A stretch of 64,000 bases of DNA from an uncultured delta proteobacterium. GTDB lineage: Bacteria; Desulfobacterota; Desulfobacteria; Desulfobacterales; UBA2156. A program made the position numbers and the translations under genes. Below are positions 13,201 to 20,406 of this stretch, one piece after another. The notes beneath the pieces were generated by a model, which was given only the letters and a program-made list of their open reading frames with translations, was not told the origin of the DNA and ran no database searches. Position 1 is the stretch's first letter; each line of letters opens with the position of its first letter. The DNA is taken from the NCBI GenBank assembly GCA_963736855.1, contig CAVTQK010000015.1, positions 128,001 through 192,000 of the forward strand, written 5' to 3'.

Positions 13201-13355
13201 TGATGAAATTGTAAAAACTCAAAATTAGGATGGCAAAGTAAAAAGCTTCAGATGCAAGGTGCGCAAATCCTGAGGAATGAGGCGTACATATGGGTACGCC
13301 GCAATGACGAAGGATGCAGTGCAACGCAGCAGATGGACTTTTTACGAAGCTATCA
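13201..13355. repeat. MITE-like intergenic element, subfamily A, copy 1
   Basis: Near-identical to 29765-29920 and to the reverse complement of 34230-34384; ends TGATGAAATTGTAAAAA / TTTTTACGAAGCTATCA; AATTT on both flanks. Confidence 0.9.
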
Positions 13356-13384
13356 AATTTTACGGGTTATCTGGAGGAAAGGAT

Positions 13385-15262
13385 ATGATCGCGGCGGAAC
13401 ATCTGACGAAAAGCTACGGATCCTGGATCCTGTTCGACCGCATCAGCTTCAAGATCAACCCCAAAGAGCGGGTGGGGCTGGTGGGTCGAAACGGGCACGG
13501 GAAGACTACCCTGTTTCGGATCATCCTCGGTCAGGAGGACTACGACGGAGGAGTTCTTTCCATCCCCAAAAACTACCGGATCGGTCATGTGGCTCAGCAG
13601 CTTGACTTTGTGGAGGATACGACGCTCGAGGAAGGGATGCGGGGACTTCCGGCAAATGAAAAGGATCACCGCTGGAAAGTGGAAAAGATCCTGGCCGGCC
13701 TGGGCTTTTCCGACCGGCAGATGGAAAGCCGACCGGAAATTCTATCCGGAGGATTCCAGGTGCGACTTAACTTGGTGAAAACGCTGGTCTCGGAACCGGA
13801 TCTGCTCCTTTTAGATGAGCCCACCAATTATCTGGACATCACTTCCATCCGATGGGTTCAGCGCTTTTTGTCGGATTGGGCGCGGGAGCTGATCCTGATT
13901 ACCCACGATCGCGGGTTTATGGATGGCGTCGTGACCCACACCATGGGAATTCATCGGAAAAAAGTGAGAAAGATCGCCGGGAACACAGGAAAATATTACG
14001 CCCAGATCGCCCAGGAAGAAGAGATCCATGAAAAAACGCGCATCAAAGATGAGCGACGAAGACAAGAGGTCGAGCAATTCATCACCCGTTTTCGAGCCAA
14101 GGCCCGGTTGGCCGGTCTGGTTCAAAGCCGAATCAAGACTCTATCCAAAAAGCAGAAAACAGAGAAGTTGGAAAAGGTTCGCGATCTGGAGTTCAGCTTC
14201 AACTACCGGCCTTTCCGGAGTAAGCAACTGCTGACCGTCAGCGAGCTGTCCTTTGCGTACCCGGGTCAGAGCCCACTGTTCCATGACCTGGATTTTTCTG
14301 TTCATTCTACGGACCGTATTTGTGTCGTGGGTCCTAACGGGAAGGGCAAGACCACGCTGTTAAAGCTTCTAGCCGGAAAATTGGTGCCGCAGGCCGGGGA
14401 TGTCACGTATCATCCGGATGCTGCCGTCGGCTTTTATGAACAGACGAATGTGCATAGCCTGCGGGATTCTTTTACGGTGGCCCAGGAAGTTCAGTCCAGT
14501 CTCGGCGACGGGGATTACCAGAAGGCCCGGAATATTTGCGGTGCCATGCTCTTTGAGGGCGACGACGCCCTGAAAAAAATTGCGGTGCTGTCCGGCGGTG
14601 AAAAGGCACGGGTGATTCTGGGTAAAGTAATCGCCTTGCCGGTAAACCTGCTCCTTTTGGATGAGCCCACCAATCATCTGGATATGGAATCCGCCGACGC
14701 CCTCCTGGCCGCCATTGACGCGTTCGATGGAGCGGTGATTTTGGTGACGCACAATCAAATGTACCTGCACGCATTGGCTAACCGGCTCATCGTTTTTAAA
14801 AAAGATCGGGTGATCTTCTTCGAAGACGGTTATCAGGAATTCCTGGAGGCAGGTGGATGGGAAGACGAAACAGCCGGAAAAACCGCGGCTTTCCGTCCCG
14901 ATGCCCCCAATGCCTGCGATGCCGCCGTAGAGCGAAGGGATAAAAAGGCGCTCCGAAAAGAAAGATCCAGGATCATCAATGAGCGTTCCCAAAGCCTCAA
15001 ACCTCTCTTGAGAACGATCGGAGAAACGGAGAAGCGCATAGAGGATCTCGAATCGAAACTGAAGAAGATGCAGGCCGATCTGATATGCGCATCGCAGGAA
15101 AAAGATGGAATGCGTATTGCCGAACTCTCCATCGAAACCAGTCGCTGCCGACAGGAGGTCGACCGGCAATTCGGAGACCTGGAAAGACTGTATCTTGAAA
15201 AAGAGACCCTGGAAACGGAATATGCTCGACAACTGGAATCCCCCCAGGATACCTTAACGTAA
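13385..15262 (+). CDS. ABC-F family ATP-binding protein
   Basis: Two ABC cassettes (GRNGHGKTT, LSGG, LDEPTN; GPNGKGKTT, LSGGEK, LDEPTNHLD), coiled-coil tail, no TM segments; likely start ATG 13385 because the upstream ORF extension is MITE sequence. Confidence 0.93.
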   Translation: MIAAEHLTKSYGSWILFDRISFKINPKERVGLVGRNGHGKTTLFRIILGQEDYDGGVLSIPKNYRIGHVAQQLDFVEDTTLEEGMRGLPANEKDHRWKVEKILAGLGFSDRQMESRPEILSGGFQVRLNLVKTLVSEPDLLLLDEPTNYLDITSIRWVQRFLSDWARELILITHDRGFMDGVVTHTMGIHRKKVRKIAGNTGKYYAQIAQEEEIHEKTRIKDERRRQEVEQFITRFRAKARLAGLVQSRIKTLSKKQKTEKLEKVRDLEFSFNYRPFRSKQLLTVSELSFAYPGQSPLFHDLDFSVHSTDRICVVGPNGKGKTTLLKLLAGKLVPQAGDVTYHPDAAVGFYEQTNVHSLRDSFTVAQEVQSSLGDGDYQKARNICGAMLFEGDDALKKIAVLSGGEKARVILGKVIALPVNLLLLDEPTNHLDMESADALLAAIDAFDGAVILVTHNQMYLHALANRLIVFKKDRVIFFEDGYQEFLEAGGWEDETAGKTAAFRPDAPNACDAAVERRDKKALRKERSRIINERSQSLKPLLRTIGETEKRIEDLESKLKKMQADLICASQEKDGMRIAELSIETSRCRQEVDRQFGDLERLYLEKETLETEYARQLESPQDTLT

Positions 15263-15417: not shown

Positions 15418-15755
15418 ATGAGTAATCTTTTTCAAGTCGCTTTTTTTACCTGCCTCCTGCTGTCTTCTTTTATAAGTGAAATCAAATTGTTAGATCAAAC
15501 GTGGACTCCAGGCGATCGGAAAACCCTCCGATATGGGGTTTATGTGAGCCGAATCGGGACGTTTGATCCGCACAAGGCGTCATCTTCTTCGGATCTTGTT
15601 ATCGCCGATTTGCTTTTCAACGGGCTTCTTCGGTATCACCCCGGCAACGCACCGAAAATCGATTCGGATTTGGCATCCGCCATACCGTACATGCAGATCA
15701 TCCACGGAAAATAAGTTTGGACGTTCAAGCTTAAAGAAGTGGTGGTGTTTCATGC
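15418..15755 (+). pseudogene. 5' fragment of a family-5 ABC transporter substrate-binding protein
   Basis: TFDPH...LLFNGLLRY...DLA, then in-frame TAA (15712-15714) followed by VWTFKLKEVVVFH; cut off by the IS at about 15755. Confidence 0.7.
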
Positions 15756-16414
15756 ACTTCCTGAACCGCTGAAAAACTGGAGGCCGTCCCCTCCTGTTCC
15801 ACAAAGAACATGGAGTAATGCTCACTGTTGGCATCGTCCATGGTGACGATCAGATCCCAGTAGCATCCCGGAACCCATTCATGCATGCTGCCGTCCTGAT
15901 GCAGCATCATCCCGACCACCGGGGCCCGCTGACGCCGTTTGCGATGTCGACCCCGAACCCGACACCTTATTAACCAGCCCGGCTTCCTGCAGCGTATTCT
16001 TCACCCAGCTGTAGGAACGCACACCCGCATGCATCCGACGATAAAAACCGTAAAAATGCTTGATGTTCCACCCCCCGTAACGCTCACGATAGGTTCCCAA
16101 AACCTGCATCACTTCATCCACCGGCGCACGGCGATGAGATACCTGAGTCAGACGTTTGTCCAATAAACCCTCCATCCCATCCTCTTCGTACCGGTAAATG
16201 TAACGACGAAACGTCCGCTCACAAACCCCCAACAACCGCGCCGCCTCCTGCTGCGTTAACCGATCCTCACCCCATCCAAAATACGCTTCCTCAAACCGCA
16301 TCATCCGAGCCTCCTGTAACCACTGTGTCCGCTTCATCAGTCCACCTCCTCGGTGACTTCATAAACCGGACAGTTTATGTGTTACAAACCCGGACAGTTT
16401 ATTTGTTCTCTACA
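15755..16414 (-). mobile_element. Truncated, frameshifted IS (ISNCY/IS1202-like DDE transposase), left part only
   Basis: HTH AARLLGVCERTFRR; after a frameshift GMMLHQDGS and LIVTMDDA (first two acidic DDE residues); terminus TGTAGAGAAC at 16414 with two subterminal CCGGACAGTTTAT repeats. Confidence 0.85.
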
Positions 16415-16746
16415 GGCGATACAATCCCGATTGACAGCGCATTCACCTTCGGATAATCGAAACCCATACGCCATGACAAATGTGTGTTCCCATATCTGGG
16501 GGTGCAAATGATGGTAAAACACAATTCATACCCATCCTTAGCACGTACGTGTAAAAGCGATTTCTTATCAATTAGATAAGGCGCCAACCGAAATGGCGAA
16601 AGAGGGCCCGAGCCCGGTTTACGGGAAATGGCCTACGGTGACGTGACCCACACCCGAAAATGAAAGGGCGATCTACCCGGGAGATGGGAGGGTATTGCTG
16701 GAAGATTCGACTGAATACTGATTTGCACTGAATTCATGTATCAAAT

Positions 16747-17913
16747 ATGACTGCATACACCTTTCCCCTTGAAAATAACCTTGTGGTGTTCCGGCCGGGA
16801 GTAAGAGGCCTATTCATTTTAAATGAAACCGCGGGTATGATCTGGAAAGGGCACGCTGATCGATTGCATCCCGGGCAAATTGCTTCTCAACTTGCAGAAC
16901 AATTTCATATTTCAAAAGAAAATGCTCAAAAGGATGTTGAACAGACAATTCGATTTTGGGCTGCTCATGGTCTCGTGGATGCAACATTGGGAAAAGCCTC
17001 CTTACAGCCAGGTACCCTGGATCATTCATCCAACCAAGCTTTCCCTCCGCCTCGAATTTCAGTAAAATCTTTTTTTTCTCAGCACTCATATTCGCTATTT
17101 GACAAATCCTTTCGAATCGGTTTTGAAACACTTGATTTGAAAAATGCCATTCACCCCCTGCTTTTTCAGTTTGAAACCGTTTCAGAGTCAACGACCAAAG
17201 TCCGGATCGATATTTTTTCAAATGAGGGCACCTATTTTGTCGCAAGAAACGGCAAGATCGTCGGGCAAAACGCCGCCATACATGAGACTGTCAGCCTGGT
17301 GCTAAAAGAACTCTTTAATATTCTTCACCCGGAAATGGAGTGGATGGCGGTCCTCCATGGAGCGGCTGTCGGAAGTTATTCTCATGGCATCTTGTTTCCA
17401 GGAGATGGGGGAAACGGAAAGTCCACACTGGTGGCCGCCCTTTCCAAATGCGGTTTCGGTTATCTCAACGACGACACCGTTCCTTTGGATGCGAACACGC
17501 AATATGCAGCCGCTCTTCCATTTAACATCTGCTTAAAGGAAGGAAGCTGGGCGACGTTACAATCTTATTATCCGGAAGTAGATTCCCTTCCGGTTTATGA
17601 ACGATATGGGAAACTGGTCCGTTATCTGCCAATTGAAAGAAACTCCGTTTGGAAAGACGTACGCTATTTCCCGGTTAAAACCGTGATTTTTCCTGCATAC
17701 CGAAAAGAAGGGGAAAACCGCCTCGAAAAGATTTCAAAAACCGAGGCGCTTAAACATTTTGTCCAATCCGGTATTTGGATTTCGCCGGACCCGGAACATG
17801 TGAGCCGGTTCATCGAGTGGATGAGATATCCTTCCTGTTACCGGCTTTCATATCATCTGCTTTCATGGGCGATTCAAAAAATCAGCGAGTTGGCAGACAA
17901 TGAAGCCGTTTAA
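16747..17913 (+). CDS. PqqD/RRE-domain - HPr-kinase-like P-loop kinase fusion
   Basis: N-terminal PqqD pattern LNETAGMIW...IASQLAEQFHIS...DV...GLV; C-terminal LHGAAV, Walker A GDGGNGKST, YLNDD. Confidence 0.85.
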   Translation: MTAYTFPLENNLVVFRPGVRGLFILNETAGMIWKGHADRLHPGQIASQLAEQFHISKENAQKDVEQTIRFWAAHGLVDATLGKASLQPGTLDHSSNQAFPPPRISVKSFFSQHSYSLFDKSFRIGFETLDLKNAIHPLLFQFETVSESTTKVRIDIFSNEGTYFVARNGKIVGQNAAIHETVSLVLKELFNILHPEMEWMAVLHGAAVGSYSHGILFPGDGGNGKSTLVAALSKCGFGYLNDDTVPLDANTQYAAALPFNICLKEGSWATLQSYYPEVDSLPVYERYGKLVRYLPIERNSVWKDVRYFPVKTVIFPAYRKEGENRLEKISKTEALKHFVQSGIWISPDPEHVSRFIEWMRYPSCYRLSYHLLSWAIQKISELADNEAV

Positions 17914-19042
17914 AGCCTTTCTTTTTTTGTGCCGATGTATTTCCTTTGAAGGTGATGACGCCAAACAGGCATCCCGCTTAAGACGAGAGATTGCCGCTGG
18001 AAATGCCGATTGGGAAATGATCATTAAAATAGCCGACCGTCATTTCGCTCTTCCGTTTTTATATCAAAGGCTTATAGAAAAAAATCTGCTCCAATATCTT
18101 CCCTCGAATAAAAGATTTTTTTTAAAAACTATATTCGAGCTTAATCTTTCCCGAAACCGGTTGCATAAGAAACAGGTCTTTGAAATCGCCCGGTTGTTCA
18201 ATGCCATCGATGTGGAGCCGTTGCTGTTAAAAGGGAGTGCAGCCCTTTTTTCAGGTCTCTATGCTTCCGATGGTGGAAGAATGATGAACGACCTGGATCT
18301 TCTTGTTCCTTACCCAAAACTCGAGTCTTGCATTCGGACCTTATTTGAATCCGGATATCGATTAATGCGAGATGAGGATCTGCCCGATCAATATCATGCT
18401 TATTTGCCGCTTGTGCACGAAAAGTATCTAACAAGGATTGAAATTCATAAGTATCCTATAAAGTTAAATTATAGTTCCATTTTAAATACAAATGAAATTT
18501 GGGAAAAATCAACTCCTTTGATATTTCAAAATGCCAGACTTCGAATTCCTGATTATCAGCATTTTATTTTACACAATATCATCCACAGTCAGCTTTCACA
18601 TAGGGGTAATAAAAAAAATAAAATCTATTTGTATCAGATGCTTGATTTGGTAATGCTAAGAAGAAATCTTGACAAAAAAATTGATTGGTATGACATAAAA
18701 AACCGATTTGAAAAAGCAGGGTATATACATCCTTTTTTGTCCTATTTGGTAATTGCTAGTAACCTTTTTAAACAACATGTGCCGGATCAAATTTGTTCAC
18801 GGCTCAAAGCTGCCATTATTTGGCATGTTTTCGAAGTTCTTTGCAATTATCCGATGGTAAACCATTTAAGAAATGCCATATATTCTTACATTGAAAATGT
18901 TAGAGTTGCATGTGGAGATCCGACAGAAAGAAGAATTTTGTTGAAAAAATTTTTAAAGACCAATACCTATAGGAAAAATATTATTTTATTTTTCAAAAAT
19001 ATTAATCATTCTTGTTTTACAAATAACAAACCATTTATTTGA
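17900..19042 (+). CDS. Nucleotidyltransferase family protein (NTP_transf_5-like)
   Basis: PLLLKGSA...LY...RMMNDLDLLV...IEIH signature; overlaps the upstream stop; visibly AT-rich. Confidence 0.85.
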   Translation: MKPFKAFLFLCRCISFEGDDAKQASRLRREIAAGNADWEMIIKIADRHFALPFLYQRLIEKNLLQYLPSNKRFFLKTIFELNLSRNRLHKKQVFEIARLFNAIDVEPLLLKGSAALFSGLYASDGGRMMNDLDLLVPYPKLESCIRTLFESGYRLMRDEDLPDQYHAYLPLVHEKYLTRIEIHKYPIKLNYSSILNTNEIWEKSTPLIFQNARLRIPDYQHFILHNIIHSQLSHRGNKKNKIYLYQMLDLVMLRRNLDKKIDWYDIKNRFEKAGYIHPFLSYLVIASNLFKQHVPDQICSRLKAAIIWHVFEVLCNYPMVNHLRNAIYSYIENVRVACGDPTERRILLKKFLKTNTYRKNIILFFKNINHSCFTNNKPFI

Positions 19043-19061
19043 AAAATGAAAGGAAGGGAAA

Positions 19062-19250
19062 ATGGATCAGAAGTCTCAAAATAAAAATGATGTTGAAAAC
19101 ACGGTTAACAGCCTAATAGTAGACCAGGATCGACGGGCTATGCTCAAAACCATAGCTTATGCAGCTCCAATTACAATCATGCTTTTAACATCCGAATCGG
19201 CTTCACCAGCATCAAGACCACAGAACGGAGATGGTATCGGTCGTCCATAG
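19062..19250 (+). CDS. Small peptide, candidate RiPP-like precursor (C-terminus replaced by IS3 sequence)
   Basis: AAGGAAGGG ribosome-binding site; DRRAMLKTIAYAAPITIMLL motif then Ser-rich TSESASPAS; last five residues and stop lie within the IS3 inverted repeat. Confidence 0.65.
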   Translation: MDQKSQNKNDVENTVNSLIVDQDRRAMLKTIAYAAPITIMLLTSESASPASRPQNGDGIGRP

Positions 19251-20234
19251 TGGACACCAATTCATCATGCTGCTAGCCGCTGTTCATAGAATCGGCGGTC
19301 GAATGCTGTCGGTGAAAGATAGTCCAGCGTTTTCTGAGTCCTCTCTCTGTTGTAGAAAACTTCAATATATTCGGTTAGTTCCCTGATGGCCTGGAGTCGG
19401 GTAGCGAAACGTCGATGAAAGATCAGCTCGGTCTTAAGCGTTGCCCAGAAGCTCTCCATGGGGGCATTGTCATAGCAGTTCCCGATTCCGCTCATCGAAA
19501 CCGCCATTCCGAGGCGATGGAGCATCTCCCGGTATTCGTGAGAACAGTACTGACTTCACTTATCTGAGTGATGAAGCAGACCGGTACAGGGTCCTGAGGT
19601 CTCCACAGCCCGCATCAATGCGCTTAATCCGATGTGCCCCGATGCGCACTCCATTAGCCGACATATCCCGCTGCAACCGTTCCGGACCGCAAGTCTCCCG
19701 CGTACGCCTGTAGGCGGCCCGGATCTCAATTTCCAACCGTCCCTCTTCCCGCGCCCGCCGAGAAGGCCCACGGCTGCGCCTGGCATGAAATCCGCTGGCC
19801 GATACCCCCAATACCCGACACAACACCCCCAACGGATAGTCGAGTTGCATATCCTCCATCACCGCGTGCCGTGCAGCGACTCCTTGGCAAAGTACGCGGC
19901 CGCTTTTTTAGTATGTCTCGCTCCATCTTCACAAGGACCAGTTCCAGCTTCACCCGGGCCATCTCAACCTTCACCTCAGTCAAAGGCCTGTGCGTCGAAC
20001 CGATCCTCTCCAGCTTCCCGGCCTTGAAAGCCCGAACCCAGTTCTCCAAGGTCGATTTCGGAAGGGAAAGGCGCATGGCTCCCTCTCCAACCGATAGGCC
20101 CCCTTCGGTAACAAGACGAACCGCCTCTAGACGAAACTCTTTGCTGTATTTGCTGTATGGAACCTTTTCCATCCTGACACCTCCGTCTATCAATCATTGT
20201 AAACTTTAGTGTCCATTATTTTCAACCTATATCA
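19232..20234 (-). mobile_element. IS3-family element with an internal deletion in orfB
   Basis: Imperfect 29-bp terminal IRs TGGTATCGGTCGTCCATAGTGGACACCAA / TGATATAGGTTGAAAATAATGGACACTAA; orfA YSKEFRLEAVRLV from ATG 20172; AAAAAAG slippery site near 19903-19909; orfB remnants LCRVLGVSASGF and GNCYDNAPMESFWATLKTE. Confidence 0.9.
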
Positions 20235-20235
20235 C

Positions 20236-20406
20236 CCTCCCGCTGCGTTAACCGATCCTTACTCCATCCAAAATACGCTTCCTCAAACCGCATCATCCGA
20301 GCCTCCTGTAACCACTGTGTCCGCTTCATCAGTCCACCTCCTCGGTGACTTCATAAACCGGACAGTTTATGTGTTACAAACCCGGACAGTTTATTTGTTC
20401 TCTACA
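20236..20406 (-). mobile_element. Second left-end remnant of the ISNCY/IS1202-like element
   Basis: Near-identical to 16244-16414 in the same orientation; cut by the IS3 end at 20234. Confidence 0.88.

Follow-up and report, generated by a model that had tools for sequence, protein, structure and literature searches.

Here we describe a three-gene cassette on the plus strand of a 64,000-nt stretch of contig CAVTQK010000015.1 (assembly GCA_963736855.1), the whole of which we refer to as the window. The cassette encodes a PqqD-type recognition element (RRE) for peptides made on ribosomes and modified after translation (RiPPs) fused to an HprK-like kinase, an NTP_transf_5-like transferase and a 62-aa peptide (Table 1). 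Judged by sequence, it adds a new form to the kinase/transferase peptide systems typified by linear polyphosphorylated peptides (LPPs) and stands as a sister to HPr-rel-A, and it is best read as a Gram-negative cousin of the LPPs that is likely exported by the twin-arginine translocation (Tat) pathway. A first-pass annotation of the window had suggested that this module might form a peptide class of its own; its independence from lasso peptides held up, but a cyclase-free class combining RRE, HprK-like kinase and nucleoside triphosphate (NTP) transferase has already been published, as the LPPs of Bacillota (Popov 2026, PMC13381572). What is new is the fused clade, its LPP-identical serine spacing and a recurring large secreted partner.

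In the mechanism that we propose, the fused RRE would bind the YAAP motif of the peptide in the cytoplasm, inside a twin-arginine-type signal, and the kinase would phosphorylate Ser51, perhaps repeatedly. The transferase would then cap the phosphate, with a hexose more likely than a nucleoside monophosphate (NMP), the signal-like leader would route the modified peptide through Tat, and signal peptidase I would release a short core carrying the modified Ser at +1 or +2. Taken as a whole, this account (RRE-kinase grip on a Tat-like leader, phosphorylation of a single Ser, probable hexose addition and predicted Tat exit) appears reasonably probable. Sets of RRE, HprK-like kinase and NTP_transf_5 are common, and the only characterised cyclase-free form is that of the Bacillota LPPs. 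The fused clade is the smallest version, made up of a pair of enzymes and a single peptide with one predicted Ser, and apparently dependent on housekeeping export alone; it offers a direct test of the role of NTP_transf_5 and of a signal peptide serving as a RiPP leader.

The RRE-kinase fusion and its predicted substrate

Residues 13 to 77 of the fusion match PqqD (PF05402) with 40.3 bits (cut-off, 23.4; E = 3.9e-10). The kinase part shows a weak match to the Pfam family Hpr_kinase_C and scores best against TIGR04352 (HprK_rel_A), reaching 62.7 bits, which is under the cut-off of 200; three other fusions scored 86-100 bits and two split controls 361 and 396. Together with the motifs LHGAAV, GDGGNGKST and NDD, all present, these matches bear out the fusion as first annotated. 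The catalytic set H204, K225, D242 and D243 is intact, with H204 and K225 kept in 100/100 aligned homologues and D242 in 97/100. An AlphaFold model of the fusion (predicted local distance difference test [pLDDT], 93.3; predicted template modelling score, 0.91) retrieved PEPCK/HprK folds and the lasso RRE TbiB1 in Foldseek searches (TM score to target, 0.82). Within the RRE, N26 is kept in 96/100 homologues and D63 in 84/100. These two residues align with those of 9x8z_B, a Protein Data Bank match of the fusion profile, that would be N33 and D70 of LppB, judged from the residue numbering with an 18-residue offset; LppB grips YxxP via N33 and D70 (Pro and Tyr) (PMC13381572).

The fusion profile matched 1,527 representatives at E ≤ 1e-30, a number that includes unfused kinases. 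In a quick, midpoint-rooted kinase tree the fused kinases were scattered and formed no single clean clade, and we therefore draw no order of events. Two loci (L022:1862-3595 and L094:1192-2925) carry the kinase and transferase fused as one 577-aa ORF behind the peptide gene.

The 62-codon open reading frame (ORF), rightly annotated at first as having its own ribosome-binding site, is a real conserved gene beyond chance: a hidden Markov model built from eight peptides of other loci recovered it blind among 9,456 small ORFs (E = 4.4e-7). Pfam and NCBIfam hold no family for the peptide, its matches in the ESM Atlas were unnamed clusters only, and the exact 62-aa protein was absent from the called proteins searched. 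For the analysis of the family, 42 peptides were kept out of 49 profile hits, the seven dropped being one false hit, one weak hit with an uncertain start and five near-duplicates; a few of the 42 come from split or broken loci. In the family layout, RR precedes a [YFVL]-T-[AP]-P motif by 12-13 residues and is followed by a hydrophobic run, a basic c-region and AxA. RR is present in 36/42 peptides and RK or KR in 5, the basic c-region in 28 and AxA in 31, which points to cleavage. The part behind the leader is variable (median, 13 residues; range, 2-177) and often Pro-rich.

The leader resembles Tat signal peptides (TIGR01409) in its RR-x-x-hydrophobic motif, uncharged h-region, basic c-region and AxA. 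It differs from ordinary Tat signals in the conserved [YFVL]-T-[AP]-P motif and in often heading almost no mature domain. Scored by a TatFind-like rule, the twin-arginine pattern occurred in 35/42 peptides versus 101/7,613 background small ORFs, and the Tat-like features named in the first annotation are thus apparent at the family level. The window peptide itself combines DRRAML with 15 uncharged residues, as in this rule, and gave no match to TIGR01409, a model whose cut-off was reached by 1/24 family peptides. TatC was found in the host genome and in 36/37 carrier genomes. We somewhat favor export through the housekeeping Tat machinery and signal peptidase I, which would replace the ABC (ATP-binding cassette) exporter and dedicated peptidase of the LPPs. 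The same or similar twin-arginine leaders also head proteins of 160-240 aa, which occur in fusion loci as well as upstream of split HPr-rel-A cassettes of the canonical kind (L075:2319-2957, L076:2271-2828, L027, L029, L096, L140, L142, L144, L145 and L162-L164).

Counted from the first residue of the motif, Ser stands at exactly +18 in 23/42 peptides, a number reached in 0/20,000 within-sequence shuffles, although this test ignores kinship; within +17 to +22, a Ser is found in 39/42. Two precursors, in L101 and L139, end at or one residue past it. The Ser 18 positions past the motif start is the most conserved residue of the otherwise variable core. In the window peptide the distance from Y33 to S51 is exactly 18, and LppA, with its Tyr at -16, is polyphosphorylated only on Ser3 of its core AQS, again 18 residues past Tyr (PMC13381572). 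The Ser-rich stretch had been taken as the modification target; the conserved spacing instead favors a single Ser, and Ser51 is the likely one. That the peptide is the substrate of the kinase and that Ser51 is (poly)phosphorylated we regard as quite likely on these sequence grounds.

Several observations count against this account. The exact +18 Ser is limited to the 23 peptides given above, with no Ser nearby in L074, L137 and one L139 peptide, and the motif has Tyr in just 16/42 and Pro in 31/42. A search with the peptide profile gave 797 small proteins at E ≤ 0.01, the best 120 of which had neither a Pfam domain nor a functional name; all of these 120 carry Ser at +18, within AQAQS, but they represent one close subfamily chosen by a profile that includes the Ser. 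In this large subfamily the motif is LTA[MI]-like and RK, not RR, is present in 120/120, so that the Tat claim is weaker there. TatC is common in the carrier phyla and as such gives weak support. The window peptide lacks the AxA and basic c-region of the family and has Pro at the family -1 column, the sequence reading TSESASP-AS (the hyphen marking the family cleavage column), and its cleavage site is therefore doubtful.

The window copy has moreover lost its native end. The terminal repeat of an IS3-family element begins at the third base of codon 57, and a copy of this element on contig C6 of the same genome matches from exactly base 19232. Residues 58-62 (GIGRP) and the stop are therefore derived from the insertion sequence (IS), a replacement overlooked in the first annotation of the ORF, whose codons 1-56 are native. 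The leader and Ser51 are native as well, and both enzymes are intact; the peptide product is either altered or in decay. No candidate for the native tail came from searching proteins with codons 1-56, and contigs of near-identical strains from four studies cover parts of the three genes, with none crossing 19232. Since its tail is IS-derived, the window copy is a poor test object, and the intact relatives L003, L005, L072 and L157 are better suited.

Gene content of related loci and likeness to known systems

Related loci were gathered by genome and metagenome scans and from genome samples of three phyla, in which 33/401, 70/401 and 7/301 genomes had a match, mostly to unfused kinases. The counts given here use a second-round peptide profile that includes the window peptide; same-place duplicates were removed, a few near-identical strains were kept and the window locus is included. 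Among 39 single-ORF fusion loci, the peptide was present in 35, the transferase in 32 and both in 29; where at least 3 kb was available on both sides (n = 26), the numbers were 24, 24 and 22. The absence of the transferase from 7/39 fusion loci speaks against the proposed role of the complete set, although 5 of the 7 have short flanks. The peptide gene is found at most about 2.1 kb from the kinase, to its left or right and in either orientation. The recurring small RR/YxxP-type ORF anticipated in the first-pass annotation is confirmed. Titles of carrier records name Gamma- and Alphaproteobacteria, Thermodesulfobacteriota, Bacteroidota and Planctomycetota.

In these relatives, conservation extends to the three genes and no further, with no conserved downstream gene missing. 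The suspected loss of downstream genes at the IS3 junction is thus not needed as an explanation: what the element removed is the 3' end of the peptide gene itself. Some cassettes carry two or three precursors (L101:338-768, L139:10296-11202 and L136:9921-11170). Extra features were noted at some precursors (L016:1798-2652, L074:6615-7916, L073:9110-9445 and L005:7256-7939): an enzyme of the MbnB/TglH type together with a CGCG core, a radical SAM enzyme, a core rich in Cys and, between the peptide and kinase genes, a methyltransferase.

The cassette is no lasso remnant. Loss of the B2 peptidase and cyclase genes from a lasso cluster at the IS3 junction would agree with the lack of a target-site duplication at this element, which indicates that DNA was lost there, and with the split Bacteroidota locus L011, where lasso B2, cyclase, B1 and ABC genes stand alongside the family peptide. 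The combination of a B1-type RRE with a leader YxxP motif (YAAP, residues 33-36), which serves as a lasso-cluster criterion, is likewise found in the window. However, no macrolactam cyclase or Asn-synthase-like ORF was detected in any of the 39 fusion loci (phmmer, all ORFs, two seeds), nor the B2 leader peptidase PF13471, in line with the lasso-free character first proposed for the module; the island in the window contains no lasso cyclase. Among 37 carrier genomes, several of them incomplete, B2 was not found anywhere in 26, and the matches in the remaining ones sit on other contigs. The host genome has no full B2, only a 41-position partial match on another contig, and the peptides lack both lasso ring residues and the Thr(-2) pattern. 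The remnant reading is thus already largely refuted, and we give it almost no credence.

The supply of lasso enzymes in trans was rejected as well, given that the PqqD/kinase locus on host contig C13 is broken and B2 is lacking. This second, decayed locus of the same genome (L001:9091-12925 and 16386-18365) has an intact NTP_transf_5 gene, frameshifted cupin and HprK-like genes and a PqqD gene with stops, and it further holds radical SAM fragments and an Asn-synthase-like amidotransferase. In a Pfam scan covering 268 of 307 picked neighbor ORFs, an Asn-synthase together with an ABC_membrane exporter was found solely at L011. There (L011:901-8828), the complete lasso set lies beside the family peptide and separate PqqD and kinase genes, an arrangement similar to the lasso/LPP co-location reported in Bacilli.

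The cassette nevertheless resembles the systems for phosphorylated and phosphoglycosylated lasso peptides, namely paeninodin (PadeK) and pseudomycoidin (PsmK/PsmN) (PMC6993621, PMC9266682 and PMC11912497) in its B1-type RRE, its kinase with the catalytic His-Lys-Asp-Asp set described for lasso kinases and its DxD NTP-transferase. It differs from them in having no macrolactam cyclase, B2 or ABC exporter, and in the position of its predicted target Ser, which lies near the core start but is C-terminal in these lasso peptides.

With the LPPs the cassette shares the cyclase-free combination of RRE, HprK-like kinase and NTP-transferase, a YxxP leader, a conserved N-terminus with a highly variable C-terminus (LPPs, 35-200 aa), the Ser 18 residues past Tyr and its AQS context. 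Unlike the fused RRE of the window clade, that of the LPPs is discrete. LPP systems come with a signal peptidase of archaeal type, dedicated to them, and with an exporter resembling MsbA; neither is linked in the fused clade: no signal peptidase was found among the 268 neighbor ORFs scanned, and the archaeal-type enzyme (TIGR02228) had no match in the host genome and exceeded its cut-off in only 2/37 carrier genomes. The LPP leader, YxxPxVLxHQxIxFETxxS, is described with no twin-arginine signal, whereas that of the fused clade is of the Tat type; the window peptide matches this consensus at YxxP and the +18 Ser but not at HQ and FET. LPPs are described as restricted to Bacillota, and the fused-clade hosts are Gram-negative. 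Because LPP peptidase, exporter and HQ/FET residues are all lacking, we do not class the cassette as an LPP, although it would be LPP-like in its working. No version with a twin-arginine leader was found described in the literature searched, although the LPP cluster tables might list relatives outside Bacillota.

HPr-rel-A (TIGR04352/TIGR04353) is the best-scoring kinase family for the fusion, and HPr-rel-A loci above the cut-off (L140 and L145) have an adjacent NTP_transf_5 gene, as in the cassette, and an upstream twin-arginine protein with a weak match to the peptide profile. The predicted HPr-rel-A substrate is, however, a protein of 160-240 aa rather than a short peptide, the window kinase falls into a different branch of the quick tree, and the separate PqqD chaperone TIGR04353 gave no hit in the window at E ≤ 1, the RRE being fused to the kinase instead.

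The transferase and the proposed fate of the modified peptide

The second enzyme was rightly recognized as NTP_transf_5-like, matching this family with 128 bits and having G112, R127, D131 and D133 invariant in 40/40 aligned homologues. A sequence search for solved structures found no relative. Its model (pLDDT, 89.7) has the pol-beta nucleotidyltransferase fold, and the best Foldseek matches, MenT1, LnuA and ANT(2'')-Ia, all transfer NMP, which weighs against hexose addition. Deletion of lppN was moreover without effect in the LPP study (PMC13381572), a further point against the proposed account. On the other hand, the DxD of the transferase corresponds to D134/D136 of PsmN, and PsmN with these residues is required for the appearance of +162/+324 Da, corresponding to hexose, on the phosphoserine of pseudomycoidin (PMC6993621). 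No other experimental result exists for NTP-transferases that accompany kinases of this type. PsmN structurally resembles ANT(2'') too (PMC6993621), which means that the chemistry cannot be read from the fold.

By analogy with PsmN, the transferase may add one or more hexoses onto the phosphate, an outcome to which we assign slightly less than even weight; the addition of NMP instead seems unlikely. Ser as the kinase target was kept from the first-pass annotation as likely, and nucleotidylation as the second step was not, being less supported than a PsmN-like hexose. In a fuller alternative, the same substrate and kinase would be used and the transferase would nucleotidylate the phosphoserine or a hydroxyl, the sugar being added later by other enzymes. 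The fold agrees with this alternative, and a review leaves room for PsmN nucleotidylation followed by a host glycosyltransferase. The PsmN-dependent products observed are nevertheless the hexose-sized ones, and no activity was seen for LppN (PMC13381572), which leaves nucleotidylation with the weaker support; we consider this fuller alternative rather improbable.

Exopolysaccharide genes adjoin at least eight loci (L004, L011, L130, L131 and L134-L137), a frequent context that parallels the occurrence of LPP clusters in capsule loci (PMC13381572), and 11/39 loci lie beside genes for large secreted proteins that share an unnamed domain and are spread over three phyla. The polysaccharide genes and these large secreted neighbors suggest a surface role; the odds of the product working at the cell surface or in the matrix we judge to be even, and the large secreted proteins are possible partners of the modified peptide. 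The partner module consists of a part of about 210 aa, which contains WN-x-x-G-[HN]-P-[FY]-P and FWV, and of a further stretch of about 150 aa. It is homologous between proteobacterial/desulfobacterial proteins and Bacteroidota type IX secretion system (T9SS) proteins (hhalign probability, 96.5; E = 7e-10), the latter ending in a T9SS signal. Pfam and NCBIfam hold no family for the module, and its Atlas clusters are unnamed. We observed it at L003, L004, L007, L010, L014, L015, L021, L023 and L089, and at L011, L017, L157, L158 and L159.

Such neighbors, together with cores of down to 2-3 residues, would also fit a peptide that is not released, being held in the membrane by an uncleaved signal or serving as a tiny carrier whose phospho-sugar would serve as primer or anchor for a surface glycan or as docking site for a large secreted protein. 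We find this doubtful: glycan genes and the partner domain are both missing from the surroundings of most loci, including that of the window, the domain was not found in the host genome and the AxA sites in 31/42 peptides point to cleavage. More speculatively, and with a fairly low probability, the fused clade may represent a widespread Gram-negative form of phosphoglycosylation before export, in which the Tat signal doubles as RRE-binding leader and as a ruler that positions a single Ser in the kinase. One and the same tag would then serve targets ranging from a core of two residues up to proteins of 200 residues, and the phospho-sugar product would prime or anchor surface glycan or dock the WN-x-x-G-[HN]-P-[FY]-P secreted proteins.

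The frequent polysaccharide genes, and the weak structural likeness of the transferase to FKRP (E about 0.08), could also mean that sugar or polysaccharide intermediates are the substrates of both enzymes, the small ORF encoding an unrelated exported mini-protein. We consider this very unlikely. The RRE that forms part of the kinase protein is of a peptide-binding type and keeps the residues that grip YxxP, the peptide accompanies the fusion in 35/39 loci in varied gene orders, and homologous kinases modify Ser of peptides.

Flanks and annotated features of the window

As first annotated, the three linked, co-oriented genes are flanked by insertion sequences, with an ISNCY fragment on the left and IS3 fragments on the right (Table 1). 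The start of the transferase ORF overlaps the end of the kinase ORF by 14 nt. The G+C contents of the kinase, transferase and peptide genes are 0.46, 0.35 and 0.43, compared to 0.51 for the genome, and the full fusion was not found among the 40 relatives searched, 5 of them of the same genus. The low G+C content and the absence of the full fusion from these relatives fit a horizontally acquired island. The repeat directly upstream of the cassette had no match in Rfam and is similar to a miniature inverted-repeat transposable element. Promoter and terminator scans gave signals no better than chance.

Table 1. Positions of the cassette, its motifs and the flanking elements in the window
Feature	Position	Strand	Basis
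RRE(PqqD)-HprK-like kinase fusion, 388 aa	16747..17913	+	Pfam/NCBIfam, AlphaFold, alignment
RRE domain, aa 13-77	16783..16977	+	PqqD PF05402
NTP_transf_5 (pol-beta-type) transferase, 380 aa; K111-G112, R127, D131-x-D133	17900..19042	+	Pfam, model
Shine-Dalgarno-like AGGAAGG, 5 nt before the peptide ATG	19051..19057	+	sequence
Peptide precursor ORF of 62 codons: 1-56 native, with 58-62 and stop from IS3	19062..19250	+	
Twin-arginine-type motif DRRAMLK, then a 15-residue uncharged stretch	19128..19148	+	TatFind-like rule
YAAP (Y33-P36), predicted RRE-binding motif within the hydrophobic region	19158..19169	+	
Ser51, predicted phospho-acceptor, 18 residues past Y33	19212..19214	+	LPP spacing comparison
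ISNCY transposase fragment and element end	15879..16414	-	family scan and repeat comparison
Second copy of the ISNCY end, 171 nt, 98% identical to 16244-16414	20236..20406	-	
Repeat of ~157 nt directly upstream of the cassette	16417..16573	.	43 blastn hits across the genome
IS3-family element, internally deleted; right repeat overlaps the peptide gene	19232..20234	-	

The ORFs neighboring the cassette appear to resemble sat/qmo/apr of sulfate reducers. An ABC match at 13277-15262 of the window is, judged by sequence, a soluble ABC protein. A 98-aa ORF at 15418-15714, without a family match and overlapped by a weak match, in inverted orientation, to the interior of IS3 (15504-15559), is probably debris.

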